DNA from: an uncultured Eggerthellaceae bacterium
GTDB taxonomy: Bacteria > Actinomycetota > Coriobacteriia > Coriobacteriales > Eggerthellaceae
Direction of reading: 5' to 3'
Assembly: GCA_947626195.1 (NCBI GenBank)
Contig: CANQRF010000007.1
Location: forward strand, 15,948-79,947
DNA: 64,000 bases
This document shows, in pieces, positions 3,369-64,000 of the stretch (position 1 is the stretch's first letter; every line of letters starts with the position of its first letter). Below the pieces are notes generated by a model, which worked only from the letters and a program-made list of their open reading frames with translations, was not told where the DNA came from and ran no database searches. Made by a program: the position numbers and the translations under genes.

Positions 3369-3377
3369 GCGGCTCGC

Positions 3378-12484: not shown

Positions 12485-12485
12485 T

Positions 12486-13121: not shown

Positions 13122-13821
13122 AGGTAATCATCCTATGCGGGGAGCTAAACAGGAATTTAGTAAGCCCCCCCCCAGGTCTAAATATTGCGCTTACAGTCTT
13201 GACTAATACCCAAGCGTCAAATCTCAAACTCCTATGATCGATATAATATAGTTCAAGCTGTTGTCGCTCGTGATCTTTATATCTCGTCTTCCCTCTTCCC
13301 ACGACTTGCCAATACCCCGTAATGCCGGGTCGAACCGACAAGAGCTTACCGATGTCGTTTCCATAAGCCTGAATCTCGCTTTTGACGACAGGACGTGGTC
13401 CCACGATTGACATTTGCCCAAGAAGCACATTTATAAACTGCGGGATCTCGTCAATGGATGTCTTTCTTAGGAATCTTCCAAGAGGAGTCACCCTTGGGTC
13501 GTTTTCCAGTTTTCGTTCCTGCCTCCAAGCTTCTAATTGACGATCATCCAAATACTTTTCAACATCATCTGCATCTGCGACCATAGTTCTGAATTTCAAC
13601 ATCGGAAATGTTGCAAGCGGTTCTTTTGGAGTTTGCTTCTTGCAACATTGCTGTGAGTATATTGGCGCACCAAAACTTGTAAGAGATATAGCTATACATA
13701 CTATTAGTGCTGGAATGCATAAAACAACAATTACAAGCAACGAAAAAACGATATCAAAGGTGCGCTTAAAGAACAGATAGGCTGTGTTTTCTCTTGCAAT
13801 GTTGCCCATACTTAGCGTCAC
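13108..13821 (-). CDS. Second initiating phosphoglycosyl transferase (tandem paralogue)
   Basis: 237 aa with the same motif set (KFRTM, DEIPQFINVLLGQMSIVGPRP, RPGITGYWQV). It is the first gene of the minus-strand cluster. Confidence 0.8.
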   Translation of the reverse strand: MTLSMGNIARENTAYLFFKRTFDIVFSLLVIVVLCIPALIVCIAISLTSFGAPIYSQQCCKKQTPKEPLATFPMLKFRTMVADADDVEKYLDDRQLEAWRQERKLENDPRVTPLGRFLRKTSIDEIPQFINVLLGQMSIVGPRPVVKSEIQAYGNDIGKLLSVRPGITGYWQVVGRGKTRYKDHERQQLELYYIDHRSLRFDAWVLVKTVSAIFRPGGGLTKFLFSSPHRMITYAEF

Positions 13822-39933: not shown

Positions 39934-42193
39934 GGCTTTCATCGGCACCTGATTTGCCGACCTCCGCGGCGTTTGATTGCGCCGCACGAAGTTCGCGAAG
40001 CTCGCCTTCAAGGCGATGTGCTTCTATCTGGTCGATGGAAGCGAAACGAGAGTCTATGACGAGGCGCGACGGAGGGTCGTTTGCTGAGGTGTCGTCTACC
40101 GCCGCGCTGGCGGCGCGATTTTTCATTGCAGCCTCCTCGGCGATGGTGAAAAGCTTTTCGAGCGCCTCTTCAACAAGCTGGGCGTTTCGCTCACAAAGCG
40201 GCCGGATGCGTTGCGCCAGCTCCTCACGGTTCTCGTAGCAAGCGGCGGCGCGCGCAACATACGTATCGGCGGACTCATCAAGCTCACCGAGGCATTCGGC
40301 AAGCCCGAGGTTTTCGAAATGCGACTGCACCTTATCGTTGTAATTCAAGCCCACGGCTGGCTTTCCCAGAACGTGATGGATGATCGAGCAGTGCAGGCGC
40401 ATCGCGAAGCCGAGTGACGAGCCTTTCATCACGGCAAAAAGGTCGTCCATGGGTAGGCGCTCCCCTATCGCGATGCTCTTTTCCCGCTGCGCCATGCGCG
40501 CACGCACGCGTTCGTGTATCGCGACATCGGTTTTATCGAAGGGAAGGAACACTGCCGTAAGCCCCGTTTGCACGACAATGCCATCGACGGCATGGGCAAT
40601 GCGATTTTCAAAGTCGGCGGGGTTCAGGTAGAAGTCGCGCAAAGCGACGACGAAATACGGCTGTTCGGGAAGGATATAGTGCGAACGCGCCGCGGATGTG
40701 CTGATGAAGTCCGCCGCCCCGAACGCCAGATCGGCGAAGGTCTCCACTTGCGTGGGAGGAACGCCCGCCTTCAAAAGAAGCTGTGAGCTTTGCTCGTCAC
40801 GCGTCATGAGAAGCGCCCCGCTGAGCCCTAAAAGGCGCGCCATATGCTGCGGTGCGGGATTCTCGAGCGGTCCGACGCCGAGGCCGATTCCCACCGTGGG
40901 GGTATCCAGCACCCGTGCCAGAAGGCTCGTCGCCGCCTGGCAGGCAGGATTCGACCAAGGGTCATAGAGAAACTCCAGATCGCCTGCCGTGGTCGCCATG
41001 GGGTAATCGAACAGAAGGCCACCGCTGAGCGTCATGACCGATGCGCCTTTGAGCGCACGATGCACCTCCGCCTTGCTATGGAGATCCGGAGCTTCGAAGC
41101 CGAACTGCCGGCGAATCGCCTCGGGACGCGCCCCGATCACCTTTACCTCGGCGTTCTTGAAACGTCGTCGGAAACGGGAGGCGAGAAACGTCATGAGAAG
41201 GTCGTCACCGAAGTTGTCGGCGCCGTACCATCCGTAGAGAACCGGACGAACCGCCGGCTGCTCACAGCAGAGCACCGCGCGCTTCCCCCGTTCAGCGGCA
41301 AGCCGATGAAGGTTTTCAAGCAATACGGGGACATCCTCATCCAGTGGCACGAGCGAGCTGAGGAGTTTCTGCTCACGCTCGCGCATGAGCGTTGCCACAC
41401 TGCCCTCTCCGGATGAGGTTAGATCCGCCAACAAGTTCGAGAGCGTGGCGCGGGAGAACGTGGCGAGCGATCCGGTGACCATGGCGTCGGCATTTACATC
41501 GGTGAATGACTGCTCTCTGAGTTCCGCGGCCAACGAATCTTCAAGGCACACGATGAGACCTTCCGCCATCCTCAGGCAGATTTCCTCGATTCCCACCGAC
41601 TCACTCGCGTCAGTGTTTGTGCCGTGAAAGTAAACGCAAATGCTTGCGAGGCGTGCTTGAAATGCCGGATCGCGCCCAAACACCCTGAAGTCGATAAGCG
41701 GCAAATCGCACGTGCCGCCCACCGAGGCATCGTAGCGCTCCTTCCCCTCCGGCTGCGGCAGCACAACGCCATGGCGCTTGACCGAAGCATCGGCGAGAAC
41801 GGCCTGCTGATAGGAGCGATCGGGGGCCGCGGTCAGCAGAAGGTCACTCTCTCCCATGCGCGGTTTCGCGCCCACCGTGATGAGCGCATCGCAGCGCCCC
41901 TGAGCCTCAGCGCCCACAGGGTGGCGCAACACCGCGAAAAGCACGTCTTTTTCCGAAAGAAACTCGCAAGCGCCCTCATCAAGTGGAACCGTTTTCTCGT
42001 CCCAAAGGACGAGCGAGGGGTCGAACTGCCCGAAAGCTACCTGCACAAGCTCTGAAACGCTTTCCCCTTCATGGGGGTCGATAACGCACAGCGCATGGCG
42101 CTGCGCGCGAAAGACCTCTTGAAGCCGATACGTATAGCTTGCCGCACCGTCGGGCGCGGCGGCAACGAAAAGAACTCGGGCATAGCCGCTCAT
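39872..42193 (-). CDS. Large multidomain protein containing a polysaccharide pyruvyl transferase (CsaB-like) domain
   Basis: The central block VLYGWYGADNFGDDLLMTF...IGLGVGP...RDEQS...MRLHCSII matches the PS_pyruv_trans family. About 330 aa N-terminal and about 130 aa C-terminal (coiled-coil-like) are unassigned. Start set at ATG 42193, overlapping the upstream stop as ATGA. Confidence 0.65.
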   Translation of the reverse strand: MSGYARVLFVAAAPDGAASYTYRLQEVFRAQRHALCVIDPHEGESVSELVQVAFGQFDPSLVLWDEKTVPLDEGACEFLSEKDVLFAVLRHPVGAEAQGRCDALITVGAKPRMGESDLLLTAAPDRSYQQAVLADASVKRHGVVLPQPEGKERYDASVGGTCDLPLIDFRVFGRDPAFQARLASICVYFHGTNTDASESVGIEEICLRMAEGLIVCLEDSLAAELREQSFTDVNADAMVTGSLATFSRATLSNLLADLTSSGEGSVATLMREREQKLLSSLVPLDEDVPVLLENLHRLAAERGKRAVLCCEQPAVRPVLYGWYGADNFGDDLLMTFLASRFRRRFKNAEVKVIGARPEAIRRQFGFEAPDLHSKAEVHRALKGASVMTLSGGLLFDYPMATTAGDLEFLYDPWSNPACQAATSLLARVLDTPTVGIGLGVGPLENPAPQHMARLLGLSGALLMTRDEQSSQLLLKAGVPPTQVETFADLAFGAADFISTSAARSHYILPEQPYFVVALRDFYLNPADFENRIAHAVDGIVVQTGLTAVFLPFDKTDVAIHERVRARMAQREKSIAIGERLPMDDLFAVMKGSSLGFAMRLHCSIIHHVLGKPAVGLNYNDKVQSHFENLGLAECLGELDESADTYVARAAACYENREELAQRIRPLCERNAQLVEEALEKLFTIAEEAAMKNRAASAAVDDTSANDPPSRLVIDSRFASIDQIEAHRLEGELRELRAAQSNAAEVGKSGADESPSRTTRGRGLLRRLRSRQAQ

Positions 42194-43494
42194 CGTGGCC
42201 CACCTTCCTCGGCAGATTGTTTCGTCACCGATCTCCCGCCCGACAAATGCCGCCTTATCTTTGAGAGCGGATCCATCAGAGCATTCCCGATGCGGTAGGA
42301 ATGCGACCGATACGCCGACTCCGCCGCGACGCGCCATGCCGCTCCATCGGCCTGCGCGCGCAGAAGCTCGCTATCCTTCGCCGACAATTCAAGCGACGCC
42401 TCTGCGGATGCCTGGCGGCTTTCCTGCAGAAGCGCGAAAAGGAACTGCTCTGCATCCTTCTCCCGAATGGCATCGTACGCCTCGCGAAGGTGTTCGAGCA
42501 GCATTTCCCGATAGGGCAACAGAGCCTCCACCCACTCCTCTTTGAAGGCTTGGTAGATCTCGGCATATTCCTCATAGGACTGCGCGGTGCTGAGCGCGTA
42601 ATGCACATGGGAAAGGATGAGGTTCACGAGGTGCTTTTCTATCCGCGGGGTAAGCAGCCCGTGGCTTTTCCCATAATTGACAATCTTGTCCAACGCCTTG
42701 AGGCCACTTGGCCCGCGGCGCTCCTTCGTGAGGCTCGTTCCGCCATCCACGCGATAGCGATAGAGGTTCTCGTCCAAAAGAACCATGCGCCGGCAATTGA
42801 GAAACGCCTCGTAGGTGAAGACCATGTCCTCTGCGGTCACGAGATCCTCGGGAAAGCGGATGTTGAGTCCTTTCACAAACGACGAGCGCCACAGCACGTG
42901 CCACACGCTGGGAATGGCGAAATCGATGGATTGGCAGGCCGTGTCCTCAAGGCTGAACGGGCGATCGTAGAGCGCGCTTTCCCAACAACGCGGGCGCGGA
43001 TAGCCCATTTGGCGCTTTCCGAAATAGCGCTCGAAGCTGAAGATCACGATGTCGGCATCGTGGGTTTCGGCGGATTGAATGGGTTCGTACACGAAGGTCA
43101 CCGCAGGGATGTCGTCGCTGTCGGCAAACAGGAGAAACTCCCCTTCCGCTGCATCGATTCCCGCATTGCGGGCAGCAGAGGGACCGCGGGATTCCTCCAG
43201 GCTGACAAGGCGAACACGCGAAGCCGTGCCCGGGCGCGCGACAAATTCCTCGATGATAGCGCGCGAACCGTCCACTGATCCGTCTTCCACACAGATGATC
43301 TCGTATGCAAAGGGAAATTGGCTCCGCGTAGCTTCGGCGAGCTTTTCGGTTCCGTCGGCCTTTTCATCAGAGGTATGCGCCGTTTCCCGAGCTTTTTCGC
43401 CAGAAACGTGCGCCACCTGCGACGTCAACGGTTCGAGGCATTCCCGAAGATATGCCTCGGCGTTGTGCACAGGGATGATGACGCTTGCTTTCAA
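42190..43494 (-). CDS. Glycosyltransferase family 2 with internal insertion
   Basis: MKASVIIPVHNAEAYLRECL, then a roughly 45-aa acidic/low-complexity insertion, then EIICVEDGSVDGS and LLFADSDD (DxD). Confidence 0.75.
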   Translation of the reverse strand: MKASVIIPVHNAEAYLRECLEPLTSQVAHVSGEKARETAHTSDEKADGTEKLAEATRSQFPFAYEIICVEDGSVDGSRAIIEEFVARPGTASRVRLVSLEESRGPSAARNAGIDAAEGEFLLFADSDDIPAVTFVYEPIQSAETHDADIVIFSFERYFGKRQMGYPRPRCWESALYDRPFSLEDTACQSIDFAIPSVWHVLWRSSFVKGLNIRFPEDLVTAEDMVFTYEAFLNCRRMVLLDENLYRYRVDGGTSLTKERRGPSGLKALDKIVNYGKSHGLLTPRIEKHLVNLILSHVHYALSTAQSYEEYAEIYQAFKEEWVEALLPYREMLLEHLREAYDAIREKDAEQFLFALLQESRQASAEASLELSAKDSELLRAQADGAAWRVAAESAYRSHSYRIGNALMDPLSKIRRHLSGGRSVTKQSAEEGGPR

Positions 43495-43685
43495 CCGGCC
43501 TCCTCAGCCTCAAGGCGGACGTCGCGGTAGACATCGTGGAGATCGCCCACGAAAACTTCTCGTAAAACTCCATGCCCATGCTACCACATGGTAAGATACC
43601 CTAAGCGAAACACGACAGAAAGACCCGCGCACGGAGCGCGAGATATCAGAGACAGCAGCAGAAAGAAGAGGGAAAGAAGAACCCC

Positions 43686-45275
43686 ATGTCCAAAGGCACC
43701 TATTCGTTCACCACACCGATCTACTACGTCAACGCGGCACCGCACCTCGGCACCGCCTACACCACCATCGCCGCCGACACCGTGGCGCGCTACCAGCGCA
43801 TGAACGATTACGACGTCTCCTTCGTCACCGGACTCGACGAGCACGGCCAGAAGGTGGCGGAAGTGGCCGCCGATCACGGCATGACGCCGCAGGAATGGTG
43901 CGATTCCATGGTGGGCGCCTTCACGGACACGTGGGAGATGCTCAACATCACCTATACGAGCTTCGTCCGCACGACAAGCGCCGCCCAACATCGGACCGTG
44001 CAGAAGTTCTGGCAAGACCTCTACGACAAGGGCTATCTGTATAAAAGCTCCTACGAGGGCTGGTATTGCGTGCACGAGGAAACGTACTACGCGGAAAGCG
44101 ACCTTCTGCGCGACGAGGACGGGAACTTCATCTGCCCCGACTGCAAGCGTCCCGTGCAGCGCGCCTCGGGCGAGGAGAACTGGTTCTTCAAGCTTTCGGA
44201 GTTCCAGCAGCCACTGCTGGAGTTCTATGAGAAGAACCCCGAGTTCATCCGCCCGGAAACGCGGCGCAACGAGATTGTCTCGTTCGTGAGCCGCGGCCTG
44301 CAGGACCTTTCCATCAGCCGCTCGACCTTCGATTGGGGCATTCCCCTGCCCTTCGACGAAGGACACGTGTGCTATGTGTGGGCGGACGCGCTCTTGGCCT
44401 ACCTCACCGGCATCGGCTACGCCGACCCCAACCGCGAAGCGGAATTCAATGCGAATTGGCCCATGCAATACCACTTCGTCGGCAAGGACATCACGCGCTT
44501 CCACTGCGTGATCTGGCCGGCGATGCTCATGGCCGCCGGCATGCCGATCACCCACACGGTGTTCGGCCACGGCTTCTTGCTCACAAAGGGCGAGAAGATG
44601 TCGAAATCGAAGGGCAACGCCTTGAGCCCCGCCGACATGGTGAAGACCTTCGGCGTGGACGCCTACCGCTATTACTTCATGAGCGACGTGCAGTTCGGCC
44701 ACGACGGCTCCATCTCGCTGGAGCGCATGGTGCAGGTGTACAACAACGAGCTCGCGAACACGTGGGGCAACCTCGTGAGCCGCGTGTTCAATATGACGAA
44801 GAAATACTTCGATTCCTGCGTGCCCGTCGTGATGGATGACGACAAGCCGCTCGTGGAGGCAAACCCATTGCGCGAGATCGCCGACGAGCTGTATGCCACC
44901 TACGACGATGCGATGAGCATCGTTGATTTCTCGGGAGCCACGCAGGCGGTGATGAAGCTTGCCTCGCGCGTGAACAGCTACGTGGAGGAGCAGGCGCCGT
45001 GGAACCTCGCGAAGAGCGAGGAGACGCAGGGCCAGCTCGCGGCCGTTATCTACAACGCACTGGAGGCCATCCGCGTCATCGCGCTCTATATGGCGCCCTT
45101 CGCCCCGCAGACGTCCGCCGAGGTGTGGCGCCGCCTTTCGCTTGGCGACGTGTTCGCGGTGACCGACATCCAAGGGGCTTCCGTATGGGGTGCGCTTCCC
45201 GCTGGGCATCACGTGGAAACGGGAGATCCGCTCTTCCCGCGCCTTGATGTGGAAGCAATCGACTTCGAAGAATAG
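43686..45275 (+). CDS. metG: Methionine--tRNA ligase (short form)
   Basis: Class I motifs PHLGTAYT (HIGH-type) and KMSKSKGN. Zn-knuckle remnant CPDCKRPV. Confidence 0.95.
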   Translation: MSKGTYSFTTPIYYVNAAPHLGTAYTTIAADTVARYQRMNDYDVSFVTGLDEHGQKVAEVAADHGMTPQEWCDSMVGAFTDTWEMLNITYTSFVRTTSAAQHRTVQKFWQDLYDKGYLYKSSYEGWYCVHEETYYAESDLLRDEDGNFICPDCKRPVQRASGEENWFFKLSEFQQPLLEFYEKNPEFIRPETRRNEIVSFVSRGLQDLSISRSTFDWGIPLPFDEGHVCYVWADALLAYLTGIGYADPNREAEFNANWPMQYHFVGKDITRFHCVIWPAMLMAAGMPITHTVFGHGFLLTKGEKMSKSKGNALSPADMVKTFGVDAYRYYFMSDVQFGHDGSISLERMVQVYNNELANTWGNLVSRVFNMTKKYFDSCVPVVMDDDKPLVEANPLREIADELYATYDDAMSIVDFSGATQAVMKLASRVNSYVEEQAPWNLAKSEETQGQLAAVIYNALEAIRVIALYMAPFAPQTSAEVWRRLSLGDVFAVTDIQGASVWGALPAGHHVETGDPLFPRLDVEAIDFEE

Positions 45276-45302
45276 AAGAAGAGGAACGCGGAAGACCAGC
45301 CC

Positions 45303-46445
45303 TTGGCAGACGAAGCGACAGACAGCCAGACGGGCCTTGATTTGACGGACAGCGAGCAGGCGCAACCGAGCCACGTGAGCGGCGCCTTTCTCTGCCGCGA
45401 GAATGAGGCGTACCTGCGCGGCGCCTTCTTCCAGAAGCGCAAGCGGGGCACGTGGCGGCAGGTGGAGGCGCCTCGCCTCGCTGGGCCGGTGGCCGACACC
45501 CATGCCCACCTGCAGCTTCTCGACGATCCCGCACTCTCCCTCGTCCGCTGCGGAGAGCGCAACGTGGATTTCGTCGTCACGATCATCGACATCGTGGAGG
45601 ATGGCGCCGTAGCGTTTGAAAATCTCACGGCGTGGCAGGGGGAGGCGGCAAGGATTCTCTCCGAGCTTACAGCCTCCGCAGGGCTTTCACCCTCCGCTGA
45701 GCTTTCAGCCTTCGACCAGCCGCAACGACCTCCCGCGATGCCATCCACGGCAGGCTCCCCCTCTCTTTCCTCGCTCTCGTCTCTCCCCGAGCCGCCTCAT
45801 ATGCGCATCGTCTGCGGCTGCCATCCGCACAACGCGAAGGATTTCACACCCATTGCCGAGGCTGAGCTGCACCGGCGCCTGAGCGACCCACGTGTCTGCG
45901 CGGTCGGTGAGATCGGCCTCGACTACCATTACGACCTCTCTCCTCGCGAGACGCAGCGCGAGGTGTTCGCCCGCCAGCTCGCCATCGCGCGCGAATACAA
46001 GCTTCCCGTGGTGCTCCACATCCGAGAGGCCCATGACGACGCTTTCGCGATTCTCTCGTGCGAAGGATTCCCTCCGGCGGGGACGCTGCTGCACTGCTAT
46101 AACCTCGACGCCGCCGAGCTCGCACGCTGGGTGGATGCGGGCTGCTATGTGGCCTTCGGCGGAGCGCTCACCTTCCACGCATCGGACGACGTGCGCGAAG
46201 CGGCGAAAACCGTGCCGCTTGACCGCCTGCTCACCGAAACCGACGCCCCCTACATGTCTCCCGAACCGCTTCGCGGCATCAAATGCGGCCCCGAATATGT
46301 TATTTTCACCGCGGCATTGCTCTGCGAGCTCTTCGACGCGCAAAGCCCCGAGAGCCAGCGCGCATTTCTCGCCACGCTGAATAAAAACGCCCACGCTTTG
46401 CTCGACCGACGCCGTTTTGACCACTCAGAAGGAGGCAGTTCATGA
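45303..46445 (+). CDS. tatD: TatD-family metal-dependent hydrolase with N-terminal extension and low-complexity insert
   Basis: VADTHAHL (first metal site), GEIGLDYHY, VVLHIREA, LHCY and ETDAPYM motifs. The DTHAH motif sits unusually far (about residue 64) from the ORF start, so the start is uncertain. Confidence 0.8.
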   Translation: MADEATDSQTGLDLTDSEQAQPSHVSGAFLCRENEAYLRGAFFQKRKRGTWRQVEAPRLAGPVADTHAHLQLLDDPALSLVRCGERNVDFVVTIIDIVEDGAVAFENLTAWQGEAARILSELTASAGLSPSAELSAFDQPQRPPAMPSTAGSPSLSSLSSLPEPPHMRIVCGCHPHNAKDFTPIAEAELHRRLSDPRVCAVGEIGLDYHYDLSPRETQREVFARQLAIAREYKLPVVLHIREAHDDAFAILSCEGFPPAGTLLHCYNLDAAELARWVDAGCYVAFGGALTFHASDDVREAAKTVPLDRLLTETDAPYMSPEPLRGIKCGPEYVIFTAALLCELFDAQSPESQRAFLATLNKNAHALLDRRRFDHSEGGSS

Positions 46446-54493: not shown

Positions 54494-55720
54494 ATGACAG
54501 ACGAGAACCACGATACGCATCAATCGCAGGGCACCGGCGGCTCCGCCCGGCAAGCTGGCGTTTTCCACCGCGTCGGCGCCTTCGCCAAACGGCACGTCGT
54601 TTTGACCATCGCCGTCGTCGCGGTCATCGCCACCATGATCTTCGTGCCGCCCGACGGCGCCTATCTCGATTATGTTGAGTGGAACACCCTCGGCCAGCTG
54701 TTTTGCGTGCTCGCCGTCGCGAATTCCCTGCGCTTCTCGGGCGCGTTCGACCATGTGGCGCACTGGACCGTCGCGCGCTTTAAGACCCCGCGGCTCATCG
54801 TGCTGGTGCTCGTTCTTTTCACCGGCGTCATCGCCACCGTGGCCACCAACGATCTCACGCTTCTCGTGATGCTGCCCTTCACGGCAACCTCGCTCATCCA
54901 ATCGGGCTGGGAGCGCTTCTGCGCGCCCGCTTTCCTCCTCGAATGCCTCTCGGCGAACCTCTGCGGCATGATCATGCCGTTCGGTAACCCGCACAACCTC
55001 TATCTCTATTCTTATTATTCCATCGGCTTCGTGGATTTCCTCGCCGTGATGGCCGCACCCTTCGCCGTCTCAATGGTGCTGATCGTCAGCTGCACATTCA
55101 TCGCTACGCGGAATGCGAAAGGTGCCTCGATCCACGCCGATGCCACGCAGAACGACCTTCCTCCGCTCGATAAACGTCGGCTTGCCATCAGCCTCGTGCT
55201 GCTGTTTCTCACGGCGTTGGCCGTATTTCGCGTGATCCCCGTTTACGTGGCGGTTGTCGTGGTTCTTATCGTGATGCTGGCGATAGACCCAAGCGTGCTG
55301 AAAGCCGTCGACTACCCCCTGCTCCTCACATTCATCTGCTTCTTCGTCTTTGCGGGAAACATGGCGCGCATGCCGTTTCTTCAGGAATGGCTCGGTAGCT
55401 TCATGGCAGCCGACGGCCTGCTCACTTCGGTGCTTCTCAGCCAAGTTATCAGCAACGTGCCCACCTCGGTGCTGCTTTCGCATTTCACCAGCGCGTGGCC
55501 CGCGTTGGTCGTGGGAACGAACATCGGCGGCACGGGGTCGCTCGTCGGATCGCTGGCGAATCTCATCACCTTCCGCACGTTCATGAACACGCGAAACCTC
55601 TTCCCCGACCACCGCGACGACCCGTGGCTCACGGCGGGTGCCTATTTCAAGCCCTATCTCATCCTGAACTTTGGATTTCTCATCGTGCTCTTCGCCGTGA
55701 GCCGCCTTTGCGAAATATAA
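54494..55720 (+). CDS. ArsB/NhaD-superfamily anion permease (YbiR/citrate-transporter-like)
   Basis: 408 aa with about 10-12 TM, an N-terminal IFVPPDGAYLDYVEWNTLGQLF block, and GTNIGGTGSLVGSLANLI near the C-terminus, typical of this superfamily. Confidence 0.6.
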   Translation: MTDENHDTHQSQGTGGSARQAGVFHRVGAFAKRHVVLTIAVVAVIATMIFVPPDGAYLDYVEWNTLGQLFCVLAVANSLRFSGAFDHVAHWTVARFKTPRLIVLVLVLFTGVIATVATNDLTLLVMLPFTATSLIQSGWERFCAPAFLLECLSANLCGMIMPFGNPHNLYLYSYYSIGFVDFLAVMAAPFAVSMVLIVSCTFIATRNAKGASIHADATQNDLPPLDKRRLAISLVLLFLTALAVFRVIPVYVAVVVVLIVMLAIDPSVLKAVDYPLLLTFICFFVFAGNMARMPFLQEWLGSFMAADGLLTSVLLSQVISNVPTSVLLSHFTSAWPALVVGTNIGGTGSLVGSLANLITFRTFMNTRNLFPDHRDDPWLTAGAYFKPYLILNFGFLIVLFAVSRLCEI

Positions 55721-55746
55721 CCCGCGAAAAGCGCTACAATGCACGA

Positions 55747-57288
55747 ATGGTTTTTTCAAGTTCAACATTCCTTCTCGTCTTCCTTCCCATCGTCCTTTTC
55801 CTCTATTTCGTCATTCCTCCGCGATGGGCGAAGAACATTCTCCTTTTGATGGTGTCGCTTGTGTTTTATGCCTGGGGCGAGCCGGTCTACGTGCTTCTCA
55901 TGATCGTCTCGATCGCCTTCAACTGGCTGTTCGCCGTGCTCATCCATCGCTCGGAACGTCACCGGAAGCTCTATCTCGTCCTCGCCGTGGCGGCGAACCT
56001 TTCCATCCTCGGCTTCTATAAGTATGAGAGCTTCCTCGCCTCCATCGTGAACGACCTTCTCGGTGCGCCGGTGGTGCCCGATCTCTCGCTTCCGCTTCCC
56101 ATCGGCATCTCGTTCTATACCCTGCAGGCGCTCTCATACGTGATCGACGTGTATCGCAAGACGACGCCCTATCAGAGAAACCCGTTCTACCTGGGAATGT
56201 ACATAGCACTCTTCCCCCAGCTGATCGCCGGCCCTATCGTGCGCTATTCAACGATCCAGGACCAGATAGAGCATCGGAGGGAAACGCTTGAGAAGTTCGT
56301 CTCGGGCTTTCGGCTCTTCGCCATCGGGCTTGCGAAGAAGGTGCTGCTCGCCAACGTTGTGGCGATCCTCGCAACGAAGATGCTGGAGCTGGGCGGTGCG
56401 CAGATCGGCGCCATCGGCGCATGGGCCGGGCTGATCGCGTTCACGTTCCAGATCTTCTTCGATTTCTCGGGCTATTCGGATATGGCGATCGGCCTGGGCA
56501 AGATGTTCGGCTTCGAATATCTGCGCAACTTCAACTATCCCTATATCTCGAAGTCGGTCACGGAATTTTGGCGGCGCTGGCACATCTCGCTGTCGTCGTT
56601 TTTCCGCGACTACCTCTATATCCCGCTGGGAGGCAACCGCGTCTCGCGGTCGCGCTGGGTCTTCAACCTTATGGTCGTGTGGTTCCTCACCGGTTTTTGG
56701 CATGGCGCGGCATGGAACTACATCTTTTGGGGCCTGTACTACGGCGCGATATTGATCGTCGAAAAGCTCTGGCTTGGCCGTGCGCTCGATCGCTTGCCCG
56801 CCGTCGTCGGGCATCTTTACACCATCGTCGTCTTCCTGTTCGGCTGGTACTTCTTCTGGATTGAGGACGTTGGAATGCTCGCTGAGTACGGGAAGGCCCT
56901 TCTTGGGTGCTATGGGGCAAGCGGCACCCTCTCGCTGTTCGAGCTCACCGCCTGGGAATATTGGCCCGTTTTCGTCGTGTGCGCACTCGCATCCACCCCG
57001 CTTGTCCCCTATCTGAGGTTCGCCCTCTTCAACTGGGTGACCCAAGAGCATAGGGGCGGCTTCCTCGCAAACGACATCGCAAACGCCAAATACCTTGAGG
57101 TCGCCGAGCTGTGCAATCCCACACCATGGCTTGAGCGCGCCGAAAGCTCCGGTGCCAGCCAAAAGCGCCTCATCGTGTTCCGTTGCGTGTATTTCCTCGC
57201 CGACATCGCCTGCCTTGCGCTTGTTCTGCTGTCGGTGTTTTCCGTGGTATCCGGTTCGTTCAATCCGTTCATCTATTTTCGCTTTTAA
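55747..57288 (+). CDS. MBOAT-family membrane O-acyltransferase (AlgI/PatA/DltB-like), copy 1
   Basis: Start reassigned to ATG 55747 (MVFSSSTFLLVFLP...). FYAWGEPVY, FDFSGYSDMAIGLGKMFGF, EFWRRWHISLS and the catalytic His context FLTGFWHGAAWNY. Confidence 0.85.
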   Translation: MVFSSSTFLLVFLPIVLFLYFVIPPRWAKNILLLMVSLVFYAWGEPVYVLLMIVSIAFNWLFAVLIHRSERHRKLYLVLAVAANLSILGFYKYESFLASIVNDLLGAPVVPDLSLPLPIGISFYTLQALSYVIDVYRKTTPYQRNPFYLGMYIALFPQLIAGPIVRYSTIQDQIEHRRETLEKFVSGFRLFAIGLAKKVLLANVVAILATKMLELGGAQIGAIGAWAGLIAFTFQIFFDFSGYSDMAIGLGKMFGFEYLRNFNYPYISKSVTEFWRRWHISLSSFFRDYLYIPLGGNRVSRSRWVFNLMVVWFLTGFWHGAAWNYIFWGLYYGAILIVEKLWLGRALDRLPAVVGHLYTIVVFLFGWYFFWIEDVGMLAEYGKALLGCYGASGTLSLFELTAWEYWPVFVVCALASTPLVPYLRFALFNWVTQEHRGGFLANDIANAKYLEVAELCNPTPWLERAESSGASQKRLIVFRCVYFLADIACLALVLLSVFSVVSGSFNPFIYFRF

Positions 57289-57303
57289 GGAGGGGTGGCA
57301 CTG

Positions 57304-58542
57304 ATGCAGAAAATCAACCGTGTGTTCAACGTATTGGTCGTGGTCTTGTTCTGCGCGATCATCGGAGCCGTCGTCCTCACGAAAGCGCCGGACCTCGTTA
57401 TGGAGAAGATCACCGGCACGTCGCATCTCAAAGCCGCTTCGCAACTTGAAGGGCGCAGCTACGCGACAGCGCCGGTGCCAGGTCTGGGCAAGGTGGCGAG
57501 CGGCGCATTCCAAAACCAGTTCGAGCAATATGTTTCGGATCTTTTCCCCGAAAAGGACCTCGCCCTTCTGACGAACGCCGCCCTTCAGCGGGATTGCATC
57601 GCCATGGCGAACCTCCCCTTCGGCTTCCCCGCCTATCCGAGCGCATTCGGATCGGAGCGCATCGTCATCCCGTCTGCCAACGCGATCACCTATATGCCGA
57701 GCAAGGTGACCGATGCCACCTTCGAGAAAGAGGACGCCTTCGCCGAAGCGGCGCGCTCCTTCGCGGAAGAGCATCCCGAGGTCGAATTCGTGTTCTATGT
57801 GGTCGGCGGATACGAAAGCCCGGCGGTCAACCCGGTGTACAGCCTCGTTTCAGATCCGCTCACCCCGCAAGCGCTCACCGAAAGCCTCGCTGAAGACATG
57901 GCAGGCGTTTCCAATGCGCTCGTTGCCTCGGTGGCATACGATTCCCTCGATAGTTATTACGAAGAGTTCTTCCGCACCGATCACCACTGGAACATCAAGG
58001 GAGCGATCAGCGCCTACAACGAGATCGCCCAGATGACCGGCGAAGACCTCATCGCTGTGAGCGACTACGAGGCGATCGAAGGCCCCGAATTCAGCGGGGC
58101 GACCGCCCGCTGGGGGCTCGATACCCTCTCCGAGCCCGTTTTCGACAGCACGCTGGACTATTCGGCGATCGAGGTGTACAAAGATGGTGAGCTGATCGGA
58201 CCCTACGAGCACGATACATACTGGGAGGCGACCCCCGAAGCACAGCACTACGGGTTCTACGAGCTCTATTACGGCGGAAGGCAGTATGACAAGCTCGTCA
58301 ATCCATCGCGCGAAGGCACCGTTCTTGTGGTTGCCAATTCGTATGTGGAAGCGATCGCACCACTGTTTGCACTGAATAACGGCGAGGTGTACGTGACACG
58401 CGAGATGCACTCCGCGAACAAAGACGATTCCCGACTGCAGGATTATTTGGAGGATATGAAGCCGGACCAGGTGGTTTTCGTGGGGCAGCCCGGAGCCTAC
58501 CTCGATTTCCTCGTGAACCATCCGAATTATTTCGAAGAGTGA
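57304..58542 (+). CDS. DHHW-family protein (AlgX/AlgJ/PatB-like extracytoplasmic acyltransferase partner), copy 1
   Basis: N-terminal TM (VFNVLVVVLFCAIIGAVVL) and the eponymous motif FFRTDHHWNIKGA. It lies immediately downstream of the MBOAT gene. The start is either GTG 57295 or ATG 57304. Confidence 0.8.
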   Translation: MQKINRVFNVLVVVLFCAIIGAVVLTKAPDLVMEKITGTSHLKAASQLEGRSYATAPVPGLGKVASGAFQNQFEQYVSDLFPEKDLALLTNAALQRDCIAMANLPFGFPAYPSAFGSERIVIPSANAITYMPSKVTDATFEKEDAFAEAARSFAEEHPEVEFVFYVVGGYESPAVNPVYSLVSDPLTPQALTESLAEDMAGVSNALVASVAYDSLDSYYEEFFRTDHHWNIKGAISAYNEIAQMTGEDLIAVSDYEAIEGPEFSGATARWGLDTLSEPVFDSTLDYSAIEVYKDGELIGPYEHDTYWEATPEAQHYGFYELYYGGRQYDKLVNPSREGTVLVVANSYVEAIAPLFALNNGEVYVTREMHSANKDDSRLQDYLEDMKPDQVVFVGQPGAYLDFLVNHPNYFEE

Positions 58543-58884
58543 GGATGAGCTGAGCTCTTCGCTTTCCATGACGCTTCGTCCTCTGCAACCGTTCGGTCGA
58601 TCAGCTCTTCGACCGAGCTCTTGATGCCGAAGAGCGTTCGCTGCGACCTCACGCAGCTCGGCTGCTCGCCCGCCGCATCGCTGAGCAGATAGCGCTTGAT
58701 GAGTTCCCAGCGACGCTCTTCCGCAGTCTGCATCTCGAATCGCATCCTTACCGTTCACATTGCTTATTGCCCACATTGCTTATTGTTCAGGTTGCATGGT
58801 TTGAGCACAACGATAGACAACACAGGCGCTCCATGCAAGTGCGCCTGCGCTCCGCCCCTTCAGCCTTCGGCAAGCTCTGTCGAG

Positions 58885-59184
58885 CTATTTCTTTTCGGAA
58901 GCGTAGAAGGTCGCGCTGTCGAAAAGGTCTTTCACAGAACGGTCGATGCCATTGATCGGAAGCTCTAAGAACTCGCTTACCGTGGGAACCAACGGGCTAC
59001 AGTCAACGTAATGACCTTTCTCGTTGATTTGCGAGGTGTCCTGAACGCGCCAGTAACGGTCGTTGACGTCGGTGAGATAGTAGGAAGCTCCGTCGACGTC
59101 CATGTAAACCGAGTGGTTGGCATGCAGATACATCGGCAAATCGTCGTAAGAAATGTCGAGCGCCTCTGTGGCCTTCATTCCCAT
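58885..59184 (-). CDS. Hypothetical 99-aa protein at the end of the minus-strand acyltransferase operon
   Basis: AAAGGAG lies 5 nt upstream of ATG 59184 (MGMKATEALDISYDDLPMYLH...). No TM or signal peptide. No family recognised. Confidence 0.4.
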   Translation of the reverse strand: MGMKATEALDISYDDLPMYLHANHSVYMDVDGASYYLTDVNDRYWRVQDTSQINEKGHYVDCSPLVPTVSEFLELPINGIDRSVKDLFDSATFYASEKK

Positions 59185-59253
59185 AGCAACTCCTTTCGCC
59201 TCGTTTAACCCTCTTGTCGTCATCATACCAGAGAGCGCCATGCACCTGAGCCG

Positions 59254-60732
59254 TTATTGTGGAACTTCCCCACCTTGTTCATCATTGTCAGCCGGCGCAT
59301 AGGCGGCATCGACCATCGACGCAAGCGATGTGTCCTCGGCAAACGTCGTCGCATTGTAGAGGAAGAGCACCTGCGTCACCTTCTCGCTTTTCATGAGCGT
59401 CGCGATGTCGTCGAAGTAATAGCGTGGATCGACGACGACCACCTTCGAATATTCCTCAGCCATAAACGGCACGAAGCAGTTGGCATACGAATCCTTTATC
59501 ACGAGCAGGACCTCATGGTTGTCCGCAAGCGTCTCGATGCGCACCACCGGATGATTGCCGCCCATGAACACTTGATATTTATCTTTTTGATTGAGCGCCT
59601 CCACGTTATAGGGCGACGATTCGATGCGTTGCTCATCGACGTAGGTGACGAGGTAGTTGTGCTCGCTGTCTGCGGAGCCGTCAATTGAATCGTCAGCAGC
59701 ACCCTCCCACGAAGGCAGATACACCTCAATCTGGTCGGATGGCGCGAAGAAGTAGCCGCTCTTCGATTTCAGCGTGCCGTCGAAATCGTCCGCAACCTCC
59801 AAAGCCTCGAAGGGCGTGACGTCGGGGTTCAGCCCCATGACTTCGCAGGCTTGGCGAAATGCCAGATAGGCGCCATAGGTGGTCCAATGATGGTCGCTCT
59901 GGTAATAGAGGCCCTCGTCCTTGTGCTCGGCGAACGTTTCCCGCACATCAATCACCCGCGCGCCCGCATCGGCAAGCCGCGCGTCCACCTCGTCAAGATA
60001 GGCGTTCTGATCGTCGGGCACCGCGGTGACGGGCAGCTTGTCGGCAAGCACGCTCACCGCCGTCGGCGCGATGAGCGCATAGGTGGGCAAGTCGGGGTTC
60101 GCGCGAACGAATTCCACGATGGCGTCGGTGGCGGTTTCGTGCTGGGGCCTCTGGAAATCCTGAATGAGATAGCCGTCGCTTCCCAGATAGACGCCGTTGG
60201 AATCGATGCCCCCGACAGCCGTGGAGATAACCGCCTGCATTCCCGCCCAGAGGTCGCGAAAGGGGAACTGGTCGTCGATGTAGGTTTGGAAGCTCTCTTG
60301 GAAACGCCCGTTGAGAATGGTCTGGGCCGTCGGCGTCGGGAAGCCCTGAAGCGAGCGGTTCTCGCTTTCCGAAAACGTCCGGTCGGGCATCACGATCGAG
60401 AGAACGACCACCACCGCGATAATGCCGATGAAGATGCGCGCGAAAATCGAAAGGTGCGCACCGTCACCGGCAACCAGCCGCAGCGCCTTCCTCCTCTGCG
60501 CGCTCATCTGCCTTGGACGGGGGGCGCTTCCATTCGGCTGCATTGGCTGCGCCGGTTGCTGCGTCGGTCGCGTAGGCTGCTGCGCCGGTTGCGACGCTTG
60601 CTGCGACGCTTGCGTCGGCTGCGCAGATTGCCCCACCTGCACGGGTTGCCCCGCCTGAGCTGGTTGCGACGCTCCTTGCTCCGCCGGCATCGGCGCAGGC
60701 ATCTTTTCCAGTATGTCTGAATGACGTGCCAT
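59254..60732 (-). CDS. DHHW-family protein, copy 2, with Q/P-rich cytoplasmic tail
   Basis: A Q/P/A-rich N-terminal tail of about 95 aa, a TM (IFARIFIGIIAVVVVLSIVM) and the motif YYQSDHHWTTYGAY. Confidence 0.8.
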   Translation of the reverse strand: MARHSDILEKMPAPMPAEQGASQPAQAGQPVQVGQSAQPTQASQQASQPAQQPTRPTQQPAQPMQPNGSAPRPRQMSAQRRKALRLVAGDGAHLSIFARIFIGIIAVVVVLSIVMPDRTFSESENRSLQGFPTPTAQTILNGRFQESFQTYIDDQFPFRDLWAGMQAVISTAVGGIDSNGVYLGSDGYLIQDFQRPQHETATDAIVEFVRANPDLPTYALIAPTAVSVLADKLPVTAVPDDQNAYLDEVDARLADAGARVIDVRETFAEHKDEGLYYQSDHHWTTYGAYLAFRQACEVMGLNPDVTPFEALEVADDFDGTLKSKSGYFFAPSDQIEVYLPSWEGAADDSIDGSADSEHNYLVTYVDEQRIESSPYNVEALNQKDKYQVFMGGNHPVVRIETLADNHEVLLVIKDSYANCFVPFMAEEYSKVVVVDPRYYFDDIATLMKSEKVTQVLFLYNATTFAEDTSLASMVDAAYAPADNDEQGGEVPQ

Positions 60733-60734
60733 CG

Positions 60735-62117
60735 TTAGAACCTAAAGTAGAGGAACGGATTATACGAGTCGAACACCAAAAACGACAGGCACACGACGAA
60801 AAGCACGACGAGCGCTGCGGTCGTGAGCGCAGGATGCGCCATCTGCTTCCTCGTGAACCAGCGCCACGGGTTCGGACGCGAGCAGATCGCCCCGACGATC
60901 AACGGCACCGCGGCGAGGCGGACAAAGTAGAGCGCATGCGCATTCGCAAACTCCACGCCGATGCCGAACATGCCGCCCAGATAGCCGAGCGCCGCTCCGA
61001 GGTCGGGCTGGCTGAAGATCACCCAGCTGACGATCACGATGAAGAGCGTGTAGAGCGAGCAGACGACGGAAGGCAGTTTCTCGAGAACACGGGCGAGCAC
61101 GTATTTCTCGACCACCAGCAGCACGCCGAAATAGAAGCCCCACGCGAGGAAGTTCCACGCCGCCCCGTGCCAGAAGCCCGTCAGCGTCCACACCACCAAG
61201 ATGTTGAACACATGGCGCGGCACGCTCACACGGTTGCCGCCAAGCGGAATGTAGACGTAGTCGCGGAACCACGAGGAGAGCGACATGTGCCAGCGCCGCC
61301 AAAATTCCGTGATCGATTTCGAGATGTAGGGGTAATTGAAGTTCTCTTGGAACTGGAAGCCGAACATGCGCCCGAGGCCGATCGCCATGTCGGAGTAGCC
61401 GCTGAAGTCGAAGTATATCTGCAGGGTGTAGGCGAGGATGCCGATCCAAAGCGCCACAACCGATGCCTCGCCTTCGCCAAGCGCGCAGACCGACACATAC
61501 ACCGCTCCCAGCGTGTTCGCCAACAGCACCTTCTTCGCGAGCCCCACCACGAAGCGTTGGACGCCGAGCGAGAAATCCACCCGCGTGATGCGCTTGTTGC
61601 GCAGCTGCTGCGCGATGTCGTGGTATTTCACGATCGGGCCGGCGATGAGCTGCGGGAACATCGCGATGTAGAGCGAGAAGTCGATGATGTTGCGGTTCGG
61701 CTCCACCTCGCCGCGGTAGACGTCGATCAGATACGACATCGCCTGGAAGGTGAAGAACGAGATGCCGATCGGAAGCGGCAGATCGTGATACGGGATATGG
61801 ATGCCGAAGATGTCGTTGATCGAGCCGAGGAAGAAGCCCCAGTATTTGAAGAAGCCGAGCATGAAGATGTTGACAACGAGCGCGAAGATGAGCTTCGGCT
61901 TCGCGTGGCGCTCGTCAGCGGCGATGTCGAGTCCGCTCACGTAGTTGAATACGCAGCTGAAGAGCATGAGGAACACATACACCGGCTCGCCCCACGCATA
62001 GAAGAGGATGCTGAAGAGCAGCAGGATGACGTTTTGCGCCCGCGCCGGCACGAGGAAATACACGATGAGCGTGCACGGCAAAAAGACGAAGAGGAAGAGG
62101 AGGCTACTGAATACCAT
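60735..62117 (-). CDS. MBOAT-family membrane O-acyltransferase, copy 2
   Basis: Start set at ATG 62117 (MVFSSLLFLFVFLP...). FYAWGEPVY, FDFSGYSDMAIGLGRMFGF, EFWRRWHMSLS and LTGFWHGAAWNF. Confidence 0.85.
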   Translation of the reverse strand: MVFSSLLFLFVFLPCTLIVYFLVPARAQNVILLLFSILFYAWGEPVYVFLMLFSCVFNYVSGLDIAADERHAKPKLIFALVVNIFMLGFFKYWGFFLGSINDIFGIHIPYHDLPLPIGISFFTFQAMSYLIDVYRGEVEPNRNIIDFSLYIAMFPQLIAGPIVKYHDIAQQLRNKRITRVDFSLGVQRFVVGLAKKVLLANTLGAVYVSVCALGEGEASVVALWIGILAYTLQIYFDFSGYSDMAIGLGRMFGFQFQENFNYPYISKSITEFWRRWHMSLSSWFRDYVYIPLGGNRVSVPRHVFNILVVWTLTGFWHGAAWNFLAWGFYFGVLLVVEKYVLARVLEKLPSVVCSLYTLFIVIVSWVIFSQPDLGAALGYLGGMFGIGVEFANAHALYFVRLAAVPLIVGAICSRPNPWRWFTRKQMAHPALTTAALVVLFVVCLSFLVFDSYNPFLYFRF

Positions 62118-62568
62118 TGAACACCCTGTCCCATTCGTCAGCCGCATCGCCGACGCCGTACACATAATAGATCCCGCGCGCATCCGAGATGTGATCGGCG
62201 AGCTTCGCCGCCTCTTCCGGCGCATAGTCACCGAAGAGCGTCGTCTGATCGTTCACGCGGTTCTCGACACATTCCTCAATAGCGGCGAGCGCCTGCTCGT
62301 CCTTCGCGCGGATGATGAGCAGCTCGTCGGCGCTCATCGGGTTCGCCGCCTTCCAATAGGCGGCTTCCTCGTACATCTCGGGCGTGATCCCCAGATAGCG
62401 CTCGAGCTGGCGCGCATTCTGCAGATCGAGCCCATCGAGCAGGCCCGATTCGGTATAGGCCGCCTCCACCTCTTGGAAGGAAACGGCAGGTGACGCATTG
62501 GAATGGTAAACGACGACGATAAAGGCGATCAGCACCACCACAAGCACATAGCGGACAATCCTCAGCAT
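62104..62568 (-). CDS. DUF4358-like membrane-anchored protein
   Basis: 154 aa with an N-terminal TM (YVLVVVLIAFIVVVY). The block ADELLIIRAKDEQALAAIEECVENR...FGDYAPEEAAKLADHISDARGIYYVYGV resembles DUF4358, a family commonly adjacent to MBOAT/DHHW genes. Confidence 0.55.
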   Translation of the reverse strand: MLRIVRYVLVVVLIAFIVVVYHSNASPAVSFQEVEAAYTESGLLDGLDLQNARQLERYLGITPEMYEEAAYWKAANPMSADELLIIRAKDEQALAAIEECVENRVNDQTTLFGDYAPEEAAKLADHISDARGIYYVYGVGDAADEWDRVFNGIQ

Positions 62569-62594
62569 AGAACAGCCCTCACCCTTGCCGATCC

Positions 62595-63428
62595 TTACCG
62601 ATACATCGCATCCGCTATCGCGAAAAGATACGGATGGTAGAAATCCATTTGGAAATGGATGCCGTCGGGTTCCAGCAAATCCATGTGCTCGAGAGCGACA
62701 GCCGCCGTGTCGATATAGGCAACGCCGCTATCTTCCTCGCAGAAGGCGCGTAACGCATCGTTATACGCCGACCATGCCGCGAGGGCGGGCTTTTCCGCCG
62801 AGGCTGCCTCCGACGAAGGGAGCGCTGACGTGACGAAGATCTCTGCCTGCGGCATCTTCTCGCGAACCTGAGCGATAACGGAGCGCAGGCTTTCGGTATA
62901 TGCCTGCGGATCGCCTCCGTTCAATATCATATCGTTTTCTCCAAACGAAAGGACGACGCGCTGCGGATGGAGATTGCTGGCAGTATCGACAAGCGGCCCA
63001 GCGGAATAGAGGCTTATGCCGATCTCCGAAACCACGTGATCAGACGATAGCAGCCCATAGTCATCGATTGCCTGCGTCCGCGAATCCCCGATAAGCACCG
63101 TGCCGTCGAAAAGCTCGTTCGCCTCCTCGAACGAGAGCGCTCCATCGCTTTGTGCCTGCTCGAGGATCGTCAGCTTATCGGCGGCGCGCTTCGCCTCAAG
63201 CTCCGCCTGGATCGTGTCGACCGGCGTGTCGGCATATGCCGCCAAGCGATCGCGGTTTTGGGTGATCTGGGATTGCGCCGTGCAAGATGGGACGATAAAG
63301 GCGAAGAGGACAACAAGGAGCACCGCTGCGGCAACAGCGATCAGCACCGCGGAAGGTCGCTTCCGCGGTGTGGCATAGTTGCCCACATGTGCTTGATTCA
63401 CCTGCACTTTTCCTCCCCCATTTGGCAT
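62595..63428 (-). CDS. SGNH/GDSL-family hydrolase (membrane-anchored)
   Basis: N-terminal TM (VLIAVAAAVLLVVLFAFIV). SGNH blocks GDS (VLIGDSRT), GxND (SFGENDM) and DxxH (PDGIHF). Confidence 0.75.
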   Translation of the reverse strand: MPNGGGKVQVNQAHVGNYATPRKRPSAVLIAVAAAVLLVVLFAFIVPSCTAQSQITQNRDRLAAYADTPVDTIQAELEAKRAADKLTILEQAQSDGALSFEEANELFDGTVLIGDSRTQAIDDYGLLSSDHVVSEIGISLYSAGPLVDTASNLHPQRVVLSFGENDMILNGGDPQAYTESLRSVIAQVREKMPQAEIFVTSALPSSEAASAEKPALAAWSAYNDALRAFCEEDSGVAYIDTAAVALEHMDLLEPDGIHFQMDFYHPYLFAIADAMYR

Positions 63429-63740: not shown

Positions 63741-64000
63741 ATGCTCAGCACCAACCTTGACAAGATCGTCAGCGAGATAGAGAAGAACTACGAAGCGGAC
63801 GAGATCTTCTTCACGAAACCGTGCCGGCGCTTTCCGAACCGCGAGGCGCTCATTCGGGTGATCAAGGAGATCCGACGCCTCTTCTTCCCCGGCTACTTCG
63901 GAACCGAATCGCTTTCCGGCCAGGCAAGCCCGCGCTATTTCATCGGCGAGCGCCTGATCGAGATCGAGCGCACCCTTCACGCGCAGCTGATCGACGCCTT
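63741..64000 (+). CDS. cysE: Serine O-acetyltransferase (partial, N-terminus only)
   Basis: Not in the ORF track (open at the window end). ATG 63741 gives MLSTNLDKIVSEIEKNYEADEIFFTKPCRRFPNREALIRVIKEIRRLFFPGYFG..., which resembles the N-terminal helical domain of Gram-positive CysE. Confidence 0.55.
   Translation, partial: MLSTNLDKIVSEIEKNYEADEIFFTKPCRRFPNREALIRVIKEIRRLFFPGYFGTESLSGQASPRYFIGERLIEIERTLHAQLIDA

Follow-up and report, generated by a model that had tools for sequence, protein, structure and literature searches.

MBOAT-SGNH systems, which are currently described as two-protein pairs, govern lysozyme resistance, autolysin control, S-layer anchoring and immune recognition. The PatA/PatB pairs of Bacillus add acetyl groups to the pyruvylated wall polysaccharide to which SLH proteins are anchored (PMC9487903, PMC7759979). 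In PatA, the tyrosine of the FxYxxF acyl-shuttle motif undergoes auto-acetylation with acetyl-CoA as donor before the acetyl group passes to the SGNH partner, whereas in Dlt systems the shuttle motif is found on a separate protein, DltX (PMC12148441). PatB1 is marked by Block I (KDS), which holds the Ser nucleophile, Block II (DxRY), which holds the oxyanion-hole Arg, and Block V (TDHHW), and the substitution R359A abolishes its activity (PMC9487903). Here, we describe a locus in 64,000 nucleotides of DNA (the window) from an uncultured gut Eggerthellaceae bacterium (assembly GCA_947626195.1, contig CANQRF010000007.1, positions 15,948 to 79,947 of the forward strand), where an MBOAT-DHHW gene pair on the plus strand (system 1, 55747-58542) faces a longer operon on the minus strand (system 2, 63428-59254). 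Judged from sequence, these are likely to be two independent, acetyl-CoA-dependent systems of the PatA/PatB1 type for the O-acetylation of envelope glycopolymers, derived from different lineages and placed tail to tail by an accident of genome history. The locus holds seven open reading frames (ORFs):

55747-57288, plus strand: MBOAT1, 513 amino acids; PF03062, E 1.9e-26, 93.6 bits (cut-off 27)
57304-58542, plus strand: DHHW1, 412 amino acids; PF14286, E 1.8e-10, 41 bits (cut-off 25), a weak match that passes
58885-59184, minus strand: an ORF of 99 amino acids with no Pfam family
59254-60732, minus strand: DHHW2, 492 amino acids from the ATG at 60732; PF14286, E 4.8e-24, 85.8 bits (cut-off 25)
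60735-62117, minus strand: MBOAT2, 460 amino acids; PF03062, E 7.1e-28, 98.3 bits (cut-off 27)
62104-62568, minus strand: DUF4358, 154 amino acids; PF14270, E 8.9e-23, 80.9 bits (cut-off 25)
62595-63428, minus strand: SGNH, 277 amino acids, the first gene of the cassette; Lipase_GDSL_2, E 1.4e-14, 55.4 bits (cut-off 32.9)

All seven ORFs were found in the 64-kb window where an earlier note, made from the letters of this DNA, had placed them, and Pfam agrees with the domains it named; independently, the same genes were called by metagenome gene callers on identical contigs. The assembly (1.83 Mb, 93% complete) has no MBOAT or DHHW genes beyond the two pairs described here, and a contig end lies 1-9 kb from the locus. 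System 2 is tightly spaced, with the DUF4358 stop overlapping the MBOAT2 start by 14 nt and gaps of 2 nt and 26 nt elsewhere. Upstream of the SGNH gene there is a sigma-70-like promoter match (63495-63467), which is weak evidence. The SGNH, DUF4358, DHHW1 and DHHW2 proteins each have one N-terminal transmembrane helix, while the 99-residue protein has none.

The earlier note had seen in the locus the logic of an MBOAT working with an extracytoplasmic SGNH-like partner, and this stands, the closest characterised system being PatA1/PatB1 of B. cereus. DHHW2 matches the PatB1 structure (PDB 5v8d) at E 9.4e-20, keeps KDS, DxRY and DHHW, and like PatB1 accompanies an MBOAT as a transmembrane-anchored DHHW protein of the permuted, SGNH-like transferase kind. 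Both organisms have two such pairs per genome, together with SLH proteins and a CsaB-type pyruvyl transferase. However, system 2 adds a canonical SGNH and a DUF4358 protein, which fall outside the published PatA/PatB description, system 1 is without the Block II Arg, and the host here is an actinobacterium (Eggerthellaceae). The AlgI-AlgJ-AlgF-AlgX system (and WssFGHI for cellulose) offers a likeness in number, as its four components are an MBOAT, two SGNH-type ectoproteins and a small accessory protein. Here, though, the second SGNH is a canonical, non-permuted GDSL_2 protein, only DHHW1 and DHHW2 match ALGX, DUF4358 is a transmembrane-anchored alpha/beta domain with no detected likeness to solved structures, and polymer synthase and export genes are not near the cassette. 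System 2 does not have the AlgF-like accessory and two AlgX-family proteins by which an AlgIJFX-type system is recognised. The PatA-PatB-Ape1 systems of Gram-negative bacteria have the same MBOAT His and C-terminal FxYxxF acetyl-Tyr shuttle, and place a transferase and a canonical SGNH in one operon, in a stand-alone cluster that acts on a housekeeping polymer. Their transferase belongs to the PatB (DUF459) family, unlike the DHHW protein here, and in system 2 the SGNH is without the Ape1 architecture, a DUF4358 is added and the envelope is Gram-positive. Lastly, CcsH/CcsI of the clostridial cellulose synthase locus form an MBOAT/DHHW pair in a polysaccharide cluster, as do the relatives of system 1, but no cellulose synthase is near system 1 and the DHHW1 clade is derived, without the Block II DxR.

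The two MBOATs are 45% identical, and pairwise alignment recovers the long blocks that the earlier note had quoted as identical between them. Their catalytic His lies within FWHGA (His319 in MBOAT1 and His317 in MBOAT2) and aligns with the FWHG motif of DltB. MBOAT1 terminates in FIYFRF (residues 508-513, window 57268-57285) and MBOAT2 in FLYFRF (residues 455-460, window 60738-60755); FxYxxF forms the C-terminal end of 81 of 82 related MBOATs. Both are predicted to be acetyl-CoA enzymes of the PatA/AlgI type. One or both systems could instead be Dlt-like and move D-alanine or another acyl group in place of acetate, given that the sole NCBIfam match of both MBOATs is the DltB model and that their best solved MBOAT relative is DltB. 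Yet against TIGR04091 the two MBOATs reach 146.6 and 156.5 bits, where the cut-off is 375; like enzymes that use acetyl-CoA, each has the shuttle motif fused to its own chain, where Dlt has DltX; the partners are DHHW proteins and not DltD; and dltA and dltC are not adjacent. We consider a Dlt-like system very improbable, and D-alanylation was set aside because the DltB scores fall far below the cut-off and the shuttle motif is fused.

The evidence for the PatB1 type is strongest in DHHW2, which also matches the DHHW structure 4nzk from E. siraeum. The Asp and His of the catalytic triad are carried by Block V, (T/S)DHHW. This reads SDHHW in DHHW2 (residues 279-283), followed by KDS at 413-415 with Ser415 and DPRY at 435-438; across its clade, TDHHW is found in 79 of 80 sequences, KDS in 77 of 80 and DxRY in 78 of 79. 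The protein is thus predicted to be a circularly permuted, SGNH-like O-acetyltransferase of the PatB1 type. Both DHHW proteins match the Pfam ALGX model, DHHW2 at 1.6e-11.

The N terminus of DHHW2 is rich in Q and P (about residues 10-75), cytoplasmic, and precedes the single transmembrane helix (about residues 90-108). The earlier note was right about the composition of this stretch but had called it a tail, when it is N-terminal. It is about 65 residues long (window 60500-60710, minus strand) and built from tandem repeats of 12, 18 and 21 nt. A sister species has the MARHS start in common with DHHW2 and almost none of the stretch, which is a species-specific insertion derived from tandem repeats. 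Some gene callers choose an alternative start after it, giving a protein of 417 amino acids. Long, low-complexity, cytoplasmic N termini that vary between species are found on the DHHW2-type proteins of Eggerthellaceae (L027 7115-9280; L028 5053-6423); the one in another genus is about 370 residues long and rich in R, P and E, and the Clostridia homologues have no such extensions. About 10 of 61 Eggerthellaceae genomes also contain a third DHHW type, the 'canonical' one (L007-L015; Pfam E 1e-60 to 1e-93), which is only 25-28% identical to DHHW2, is often multicopy, and adjoins MBOATs without DUF4358.

Conserved residues, together with published work on PatA/PatB and PatB1, suggest how both systems would operate. 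The MBOAT would take acetyl from cytoplasmic acetyl-CoA and, through His319 or His317, load it onto the Tyr of FxYxxF at the outer face of the membrane. With the help of the Asp and His in the DHHW motif, the acetyl group would then move to the Ser of the transmembrane-anchored DHHW protein (Ser346 for DHHW1, Ser415 for DHHW2), which would transfer it to a hydroxyl group on a wall-polymer sugar. In system 2, the three transmembrane-anchored ectoproteins and the MBOAT most likely form one complex, with DHHW2 most likely its transferase.

The two systems are not copies of one another. The earlier note had called them paralogous and had proposed an MBOAT phylogeny; in the MBOAT tree built here, the backbone of which is poorly resolved, each MBOAT groups with the MBOATs of its own partner type (support 100/100 and 100/99). 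MBOAT1 clusters with MBOATs that precede DHHW1-type partners (100/100), and MBOAT2 nests among the cassette MBOATs of Bacillota. As the note had observed, the DHHW partners have diverged much further than the MBOATs: DHHW1 and DHHW2 barely align and have little in common beyond the DHHW motif. A recent local duplication was ruled out by the 45% identity of the MBOATs, the nearly unalignable DHHW proteins and the MBOAT tree, and 'paralogous' in the sense of such a duplication does not hold, as the MBOATs split by partner type and system 1 is missing at the sister-species locus. By these comparisons the two systems appear anciently diverged. Both are complete in their core residues, since motif alignments show that neither copy has lost its catalytic His, DHHW motif or Ser nucleophile.

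DHHW1, which is anchored by a transmembrane helix at residues 2-20, departs further from PatB1. It keeps TDHHW (residues 225-229) and Ser346, but its Block I reads ANS rather than KDS, and the DxRY of Block II is absent, with VTREM at 364-368. Its nearest relatives are at most 37% identical. System 1 could therefore be impaired or repurposed, with DHHW1 a pseudoenzyme or an enzyme of different chemistry or acceptor class: besides ANS and VTREM, the 13 closest homologues have NSY for KDS and are without DxR, while more distant members and DHHW2 keep both, and it is the loss of this Arg (R359A) that abolishes PatB1 activity (PMC9487903). The same clade nevertheless keeps D226, H227, H228, W229 and S346 invariant at 30-37% identity, MBOAT1 retains its His and FxYxxF, and this is what one sees in an active enzyme whose oxyanion hole has been remodelled, such as AlgX/AlgJ and PatB. 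The missing Arg would thus point to another oxyanion arrangement in the DHHW1 clade or to impairment, and system 1 may work differently or poorly; that it is impaired or repurposed seems quite unlikely to us.

The genomic habits of system 1 also differ from those of system 2. Relatives of DHHW1 sit directly after an MBOAT of about 510 residues, among glycosyltransferases, flippases and nucleotide-sugar genes, and neither DUF4358 nor a separate SGNH gene was seen beside them in the loci inspected. In the sister species (G035), system 1 is absent at this locus, and the slot between CitMHS and a small ORF described below is taken by RHS-repeat/zinc-ribbon, YARHG and Amidase_2 genes (L028 7000-12200, against window 55720-58542). 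Because other genes fill that slot, system 1 is a variable cassette in a replaceable accessory site, and the tail-to-tail arrangement is specific to this species.

System 2, by comparison, is one instance of a widespread four-gene cassette. The earlier note had suggested counting how often DUF4358, SGNH and DHHW genes accompany an MBOAT. Searching the DHHW2 alignment against one genome per species returned 80 loci at 33-44% identity, nearly all in Bacillota, which were scanned with hidden Markov models built for this analysis; 63 were evaluable, having at least 3.8 kb of upstream sequence. Exactly SGNH-DUF4358-MBOAT-DHHW was found in 49 of the 63, the same four genes with an extra gene in three further loci, and the order SGNH-MBOAT-DHHW-DUF4358 in two Paenibacillus loci, so that all four genes are present in 54. 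Six loci have DUF4358-MBOAT-DHHW, which brings DUF4358 to 60 of 63, and only three have the bare pair. A second sample was centred on DUF4358: of 150 evenly sampled Clostridia genomes, 36 encode it, mostly in a single copy. Among the 30 best Clostridia loci, which were inspected, it lies directly beside an MBOAT in 24, and in five it is part of a single chain, TM-DHHW-SGNH-DUF4358 (TM, transmembrane helix), right after the MBOAT; at least 29 of the 30 have it either adjacent to an MBOAT or fused to DHHW and SGNH. The fusion proteins are 727-822 residues long (L143 5286-7751, L144 4195-6414, L145 4196-6394, L146 5109-7289), and both catalytic centres are kept in the one inspected. The L144 fusion has DHHT in place of DHHW and keeps KDS, DxRY, GDS, GxN and DxxH. 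All five of the named Bacillota genomes examined have just one DUF4358 gene, and it belongs to the cassette.

DUF4358 and SGNH are hence near-obligate members of the cassette rather than incidental extensions of an MBOAT-DHHW pair. The flanks are heterogeneous (181 families in 134 flanking ORFs), no recurrent glycan or teichoic acid genes appeared in the tally of neighbour families over those ORFs, and the cassette behaves as a self-contained unit. Literature searches turned up DUF4358 once, in passing, and nowhere a four-gene cassette of this kind, so SGNH-DUF4358-MBOAT-DHHW appears to be undescribed as a unit. Cassettes can also be stacked in Clostridia (L069 1036-9104, L037 4990-12384, L052 2370-13176): in one such locus, two complete four-gene modules stand in tandem, and in the others an additional MBOAT-DHHW pair comes after a cassette and converges on it, as in this window. 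One extra clostridial DHHW protein reads TDPHW.

What the two added proteins do can be approached through their conserved residues. Behind a transmembrane segment at residues 23-41, the SGNH protein carries Block I as GDS (114-116, window 63081-63089), Block II as G137, Block III as GEND (163-166, with G163 and N165) and Block V as DGIH (255-258, with D255 and H258). Across 58 cassette homologues, conservation of GDS, the Block II Gly, GxN and DxxH amounts to 91-100%, and we therefore predict an active, canonical SGNH enzyme. It may edit or remove acetyl groups in the manner of Ape1, to which we give a little less than an even chance; canonical oxyanion residues and the example of PatA-PatB-Ape1 incline us that way. 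Alternatively, as the natural fusions and the AlgJ-to-AlgX precedent suggest, it may be a second transfer station or relay, which we regard as a more tentative proposal. A stricter form of the first option makes the whole operon an acetylation/de-acetylation pair, in which the SGNH is solely an O-acetyl esterase and DUF4358 regulates it. Known peptidoglycan O-acetylation clusters do have an esterase in the same operon (PMC12148441, PMC9487903), all four SGNH blocks are conserved here, including the Gly and Asn oxyanion residues, and the nearest solved sequences are acetylesterase-type proteins, although these matches are weak (E 0.008-0.02). On the other hand, SGNH domains that act as transferases, OatA's among them, likewise keep the triad, and in five Clostridia loci the SGNH is fused behind an apparently active DHHW domain, an arrangement commoner for cooperative than for opposing steps. 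We see this strict esterase pair as possible, but lean slightly against it.

DUF4358 consists of an N-terminal transmembrane helix and an extracytoplasmic alpha/beta domain of about 110 residues (AlphaFold2 model, pLDDT 95.2). A fold search of this model against the PDB gave no significant neighbour (best E 0.12), and a word-based homologue search with the protein returned only the query; the PF14270 family has 566 representatives at E<=1e-3. E82, Y115, Y134 and F150 are invariant, and there are no obvious catalytic residues. Since the domain also stands at the C-terminal end of the fusion proteins, much as a carbohydrate-binding module ends AlgX, our best guess is a non-catalytic subunit that serves as an adaptor or binds the acceptor.

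The distribution of the cassette speaks to its origin. Among 151 sampled Coriobacteriia, DUF4358 is found in one genome, this one, and among 61 Eggerthellaceae genomes in three, always beside a DHHW2-type gene. The sister species keeps the CysE-like, SGNH, DUF4358, MBOAT2, DHHW2 and 99-residue genes at 83-98% identity, and another Eggerthellaceae genus has the four cassette genes at 34-61% identity in a different genomic place. DHHW2 is 41-43% identical to Lachnospiraceae proteins and 44% identical to its counterpart in that other genus. With DUF4358 in 36 of 150 Clostridia against one of 151 Coriobacteriia, the simplest reading is that system 2 was probably imported horizontally from Bacillota (Clostridia). 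The CysE-like neighbour is a hexapeptide-repeat, serine-acetyltransferase-like gene of 306 amino acids, divergent beside the cassette (window 63741-64000; L006 1689-2609, plus strand) and 98% identical to its sister-species copy.

If both systems are active, their acceptors have to be sought in the envelope. The genome has many SLH-domain proteins (46 repeat hits) and, at 39.9-43.5 kb of the window, a CsaB-like pyruvyl transferase with a GT2 glycosyltransferase; no Acyl_transf_3/OatA-type protein was found in the 93%-complete assembly. By analogy, this is the setting in which the PatA/PatB pairs of Bacillus work. For system 2, the acceptor is probably a housekeeping wall polymer, either peptidoglycan or the pyruvylated, SLH-anchoring polysaccharide, because the cassette is not tied to a glycan-synthesis cluster and the genome is without OatA. 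System 1 most likely decorates a strain-variable surface polysaccharide, judging from its absence at the sister site and from relatives that lie in polysaccharide clusters. The earlier note's idea of two different acceptors is therefore plausible in that the two types are anciently diverged and have different genomic habits; which polymers these are is read from context.

Two glycan regions of the window could supply such acceptors. The first (1-13821, minus strand) is a nucleotide-sugar and GT4 cluster of heptose/6-deoxyheptose type, with SIS, two GHMP kinase, NTP-transferase-HAD fusion and GDP-mannose dehydratase-like genes. The second (39872-45509, minus strand) contains the long CsaB-like pyruvyl transferase, the GT2 and a protein of 642 amino acids that matches no family.

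Instead of having an acceptor each, the two systems might be redundant on one, for example the pyruvylated secondary cell wall polysaccharide. In B. anthracis, only the PatA1/PatA2 double mutant strongly lowers O-acetylation (review PMC7759979), and redundancy here would agree with the SLH proteins and CsaB-like enzyme of this genome and with clostridial loci that also stack several MBOAT-DHHW pairs (L037, L052, L069). It agrees less well with DHHW partners that are almost unalignable and differ in their active-site blocks, with the contrast between a stand-alone cassette and pairs in glycan clusters, or with a sister species that does without system 1 at this site. We consider redundancy unlikely.

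Several points weigh against two independent PatA/PatB1-type systems as set out here. All gene functions at the locus are predictions from sequence, and the acceptor polymers are deduced only from genomic context. DHHW1 and its closest clade are without the Block II Arg whose replacement inactivates PatB1. The direction in which the SGNH reaction runs can be argued from both sides, as its Gly/Asn oxyanion residues fit a hydrolase and the fusions fit a relay at least equally, and the role given to DUF4358 is a guess, since its model has no structural neighbour. The direction of transfer follows from distribution only, alongside an MBOAT tree with a poorly resolved backbone.

Of most interest are the four-gene cassette, its single-chain fusions, its inferred spread across phyla and the derived DHHW1 clade. 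Found in roughly one in four of the sampled Clostridia, the cassette extends the two-protein scheme by another SGNH and a DUF, sometimes in one chain. It offers a handle on how acetyl groups are handed over and edited outside the membrane, and gives DUF4358 a concrete proposed role. The window would document a passage of the cassette from Bacillota to gut Actinomycetota, as well as a DHHW clade with a replaced PatB1 oxyanion hole. A bolder, tentative proposal, which we think somewhat doubtful, is that the cassette is a four-component wall O-acetylation machine of Gram-positive anaerobes that is spreading across phyla. In this machine, an MBOAT would serve three ectodomains, DUF4358 would act as a new kind of module that presents acceptors or relays acyl groups, and peptidoglycan or the secondary cell wall polysaccharide would be acetylated by this route in bacteria without OatA. 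If so, the published 'MBOAT-SGNH pair' would really be one MBOAT with three ectodomains in this large clade, for which the natural DHHW-SGNH-DUF4358 fusions speak, and the cassette a route to lysozyme resistance and SLH-protein anchoring in OatA-less bacteria.

The gene of 99 amino acids, which the earlier note had counted as an extension of system 2, is a separate gene. Its protein has 613 homologue clusters across Eggerthellaceae at 73-96% identity, with 39 invariant residues, and substitutions relative to the sister species are mostly synonymous. In other genera, the gene is flanked by metH and a gene for a ParA/Mrp ATPase, away from any MBOAT or acyltransferase, and this conserved context in genomes without MBOAT neighbours ruled it out as a component of the system. 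It is a real, conserved, cytoplasmic core gene of Eggerthellaceae that is unrelated to acylation. The AlphaFold2 model is confident (pLDDT 93), and a fold search found no significant PDB neighbour. NCBI names the protein 'CDP-alcohol phosphatidyltransferase', which cannot fit 99 residues without a transmembrane segment. A proposed link between the locus and lipoprotein N-acetylation was likewise dropped, having rested on an unrelated paper.

Downstream of the 99-residue gene lies the small ORF mentioned above (MQTAEERRWELIKRYLL..., about 68-72 amino acids; window 58527-58733, minus strand), whose 3' end overlaps the DHHW1 stop and forms the border of the variable segment. The idea that it is what remains of the ParA/Mrp gene, which comes after the 99-residue gene in other genera, was rejected. 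It is kept in the sister species with mostly third-position changes and is thus probably a real gene.

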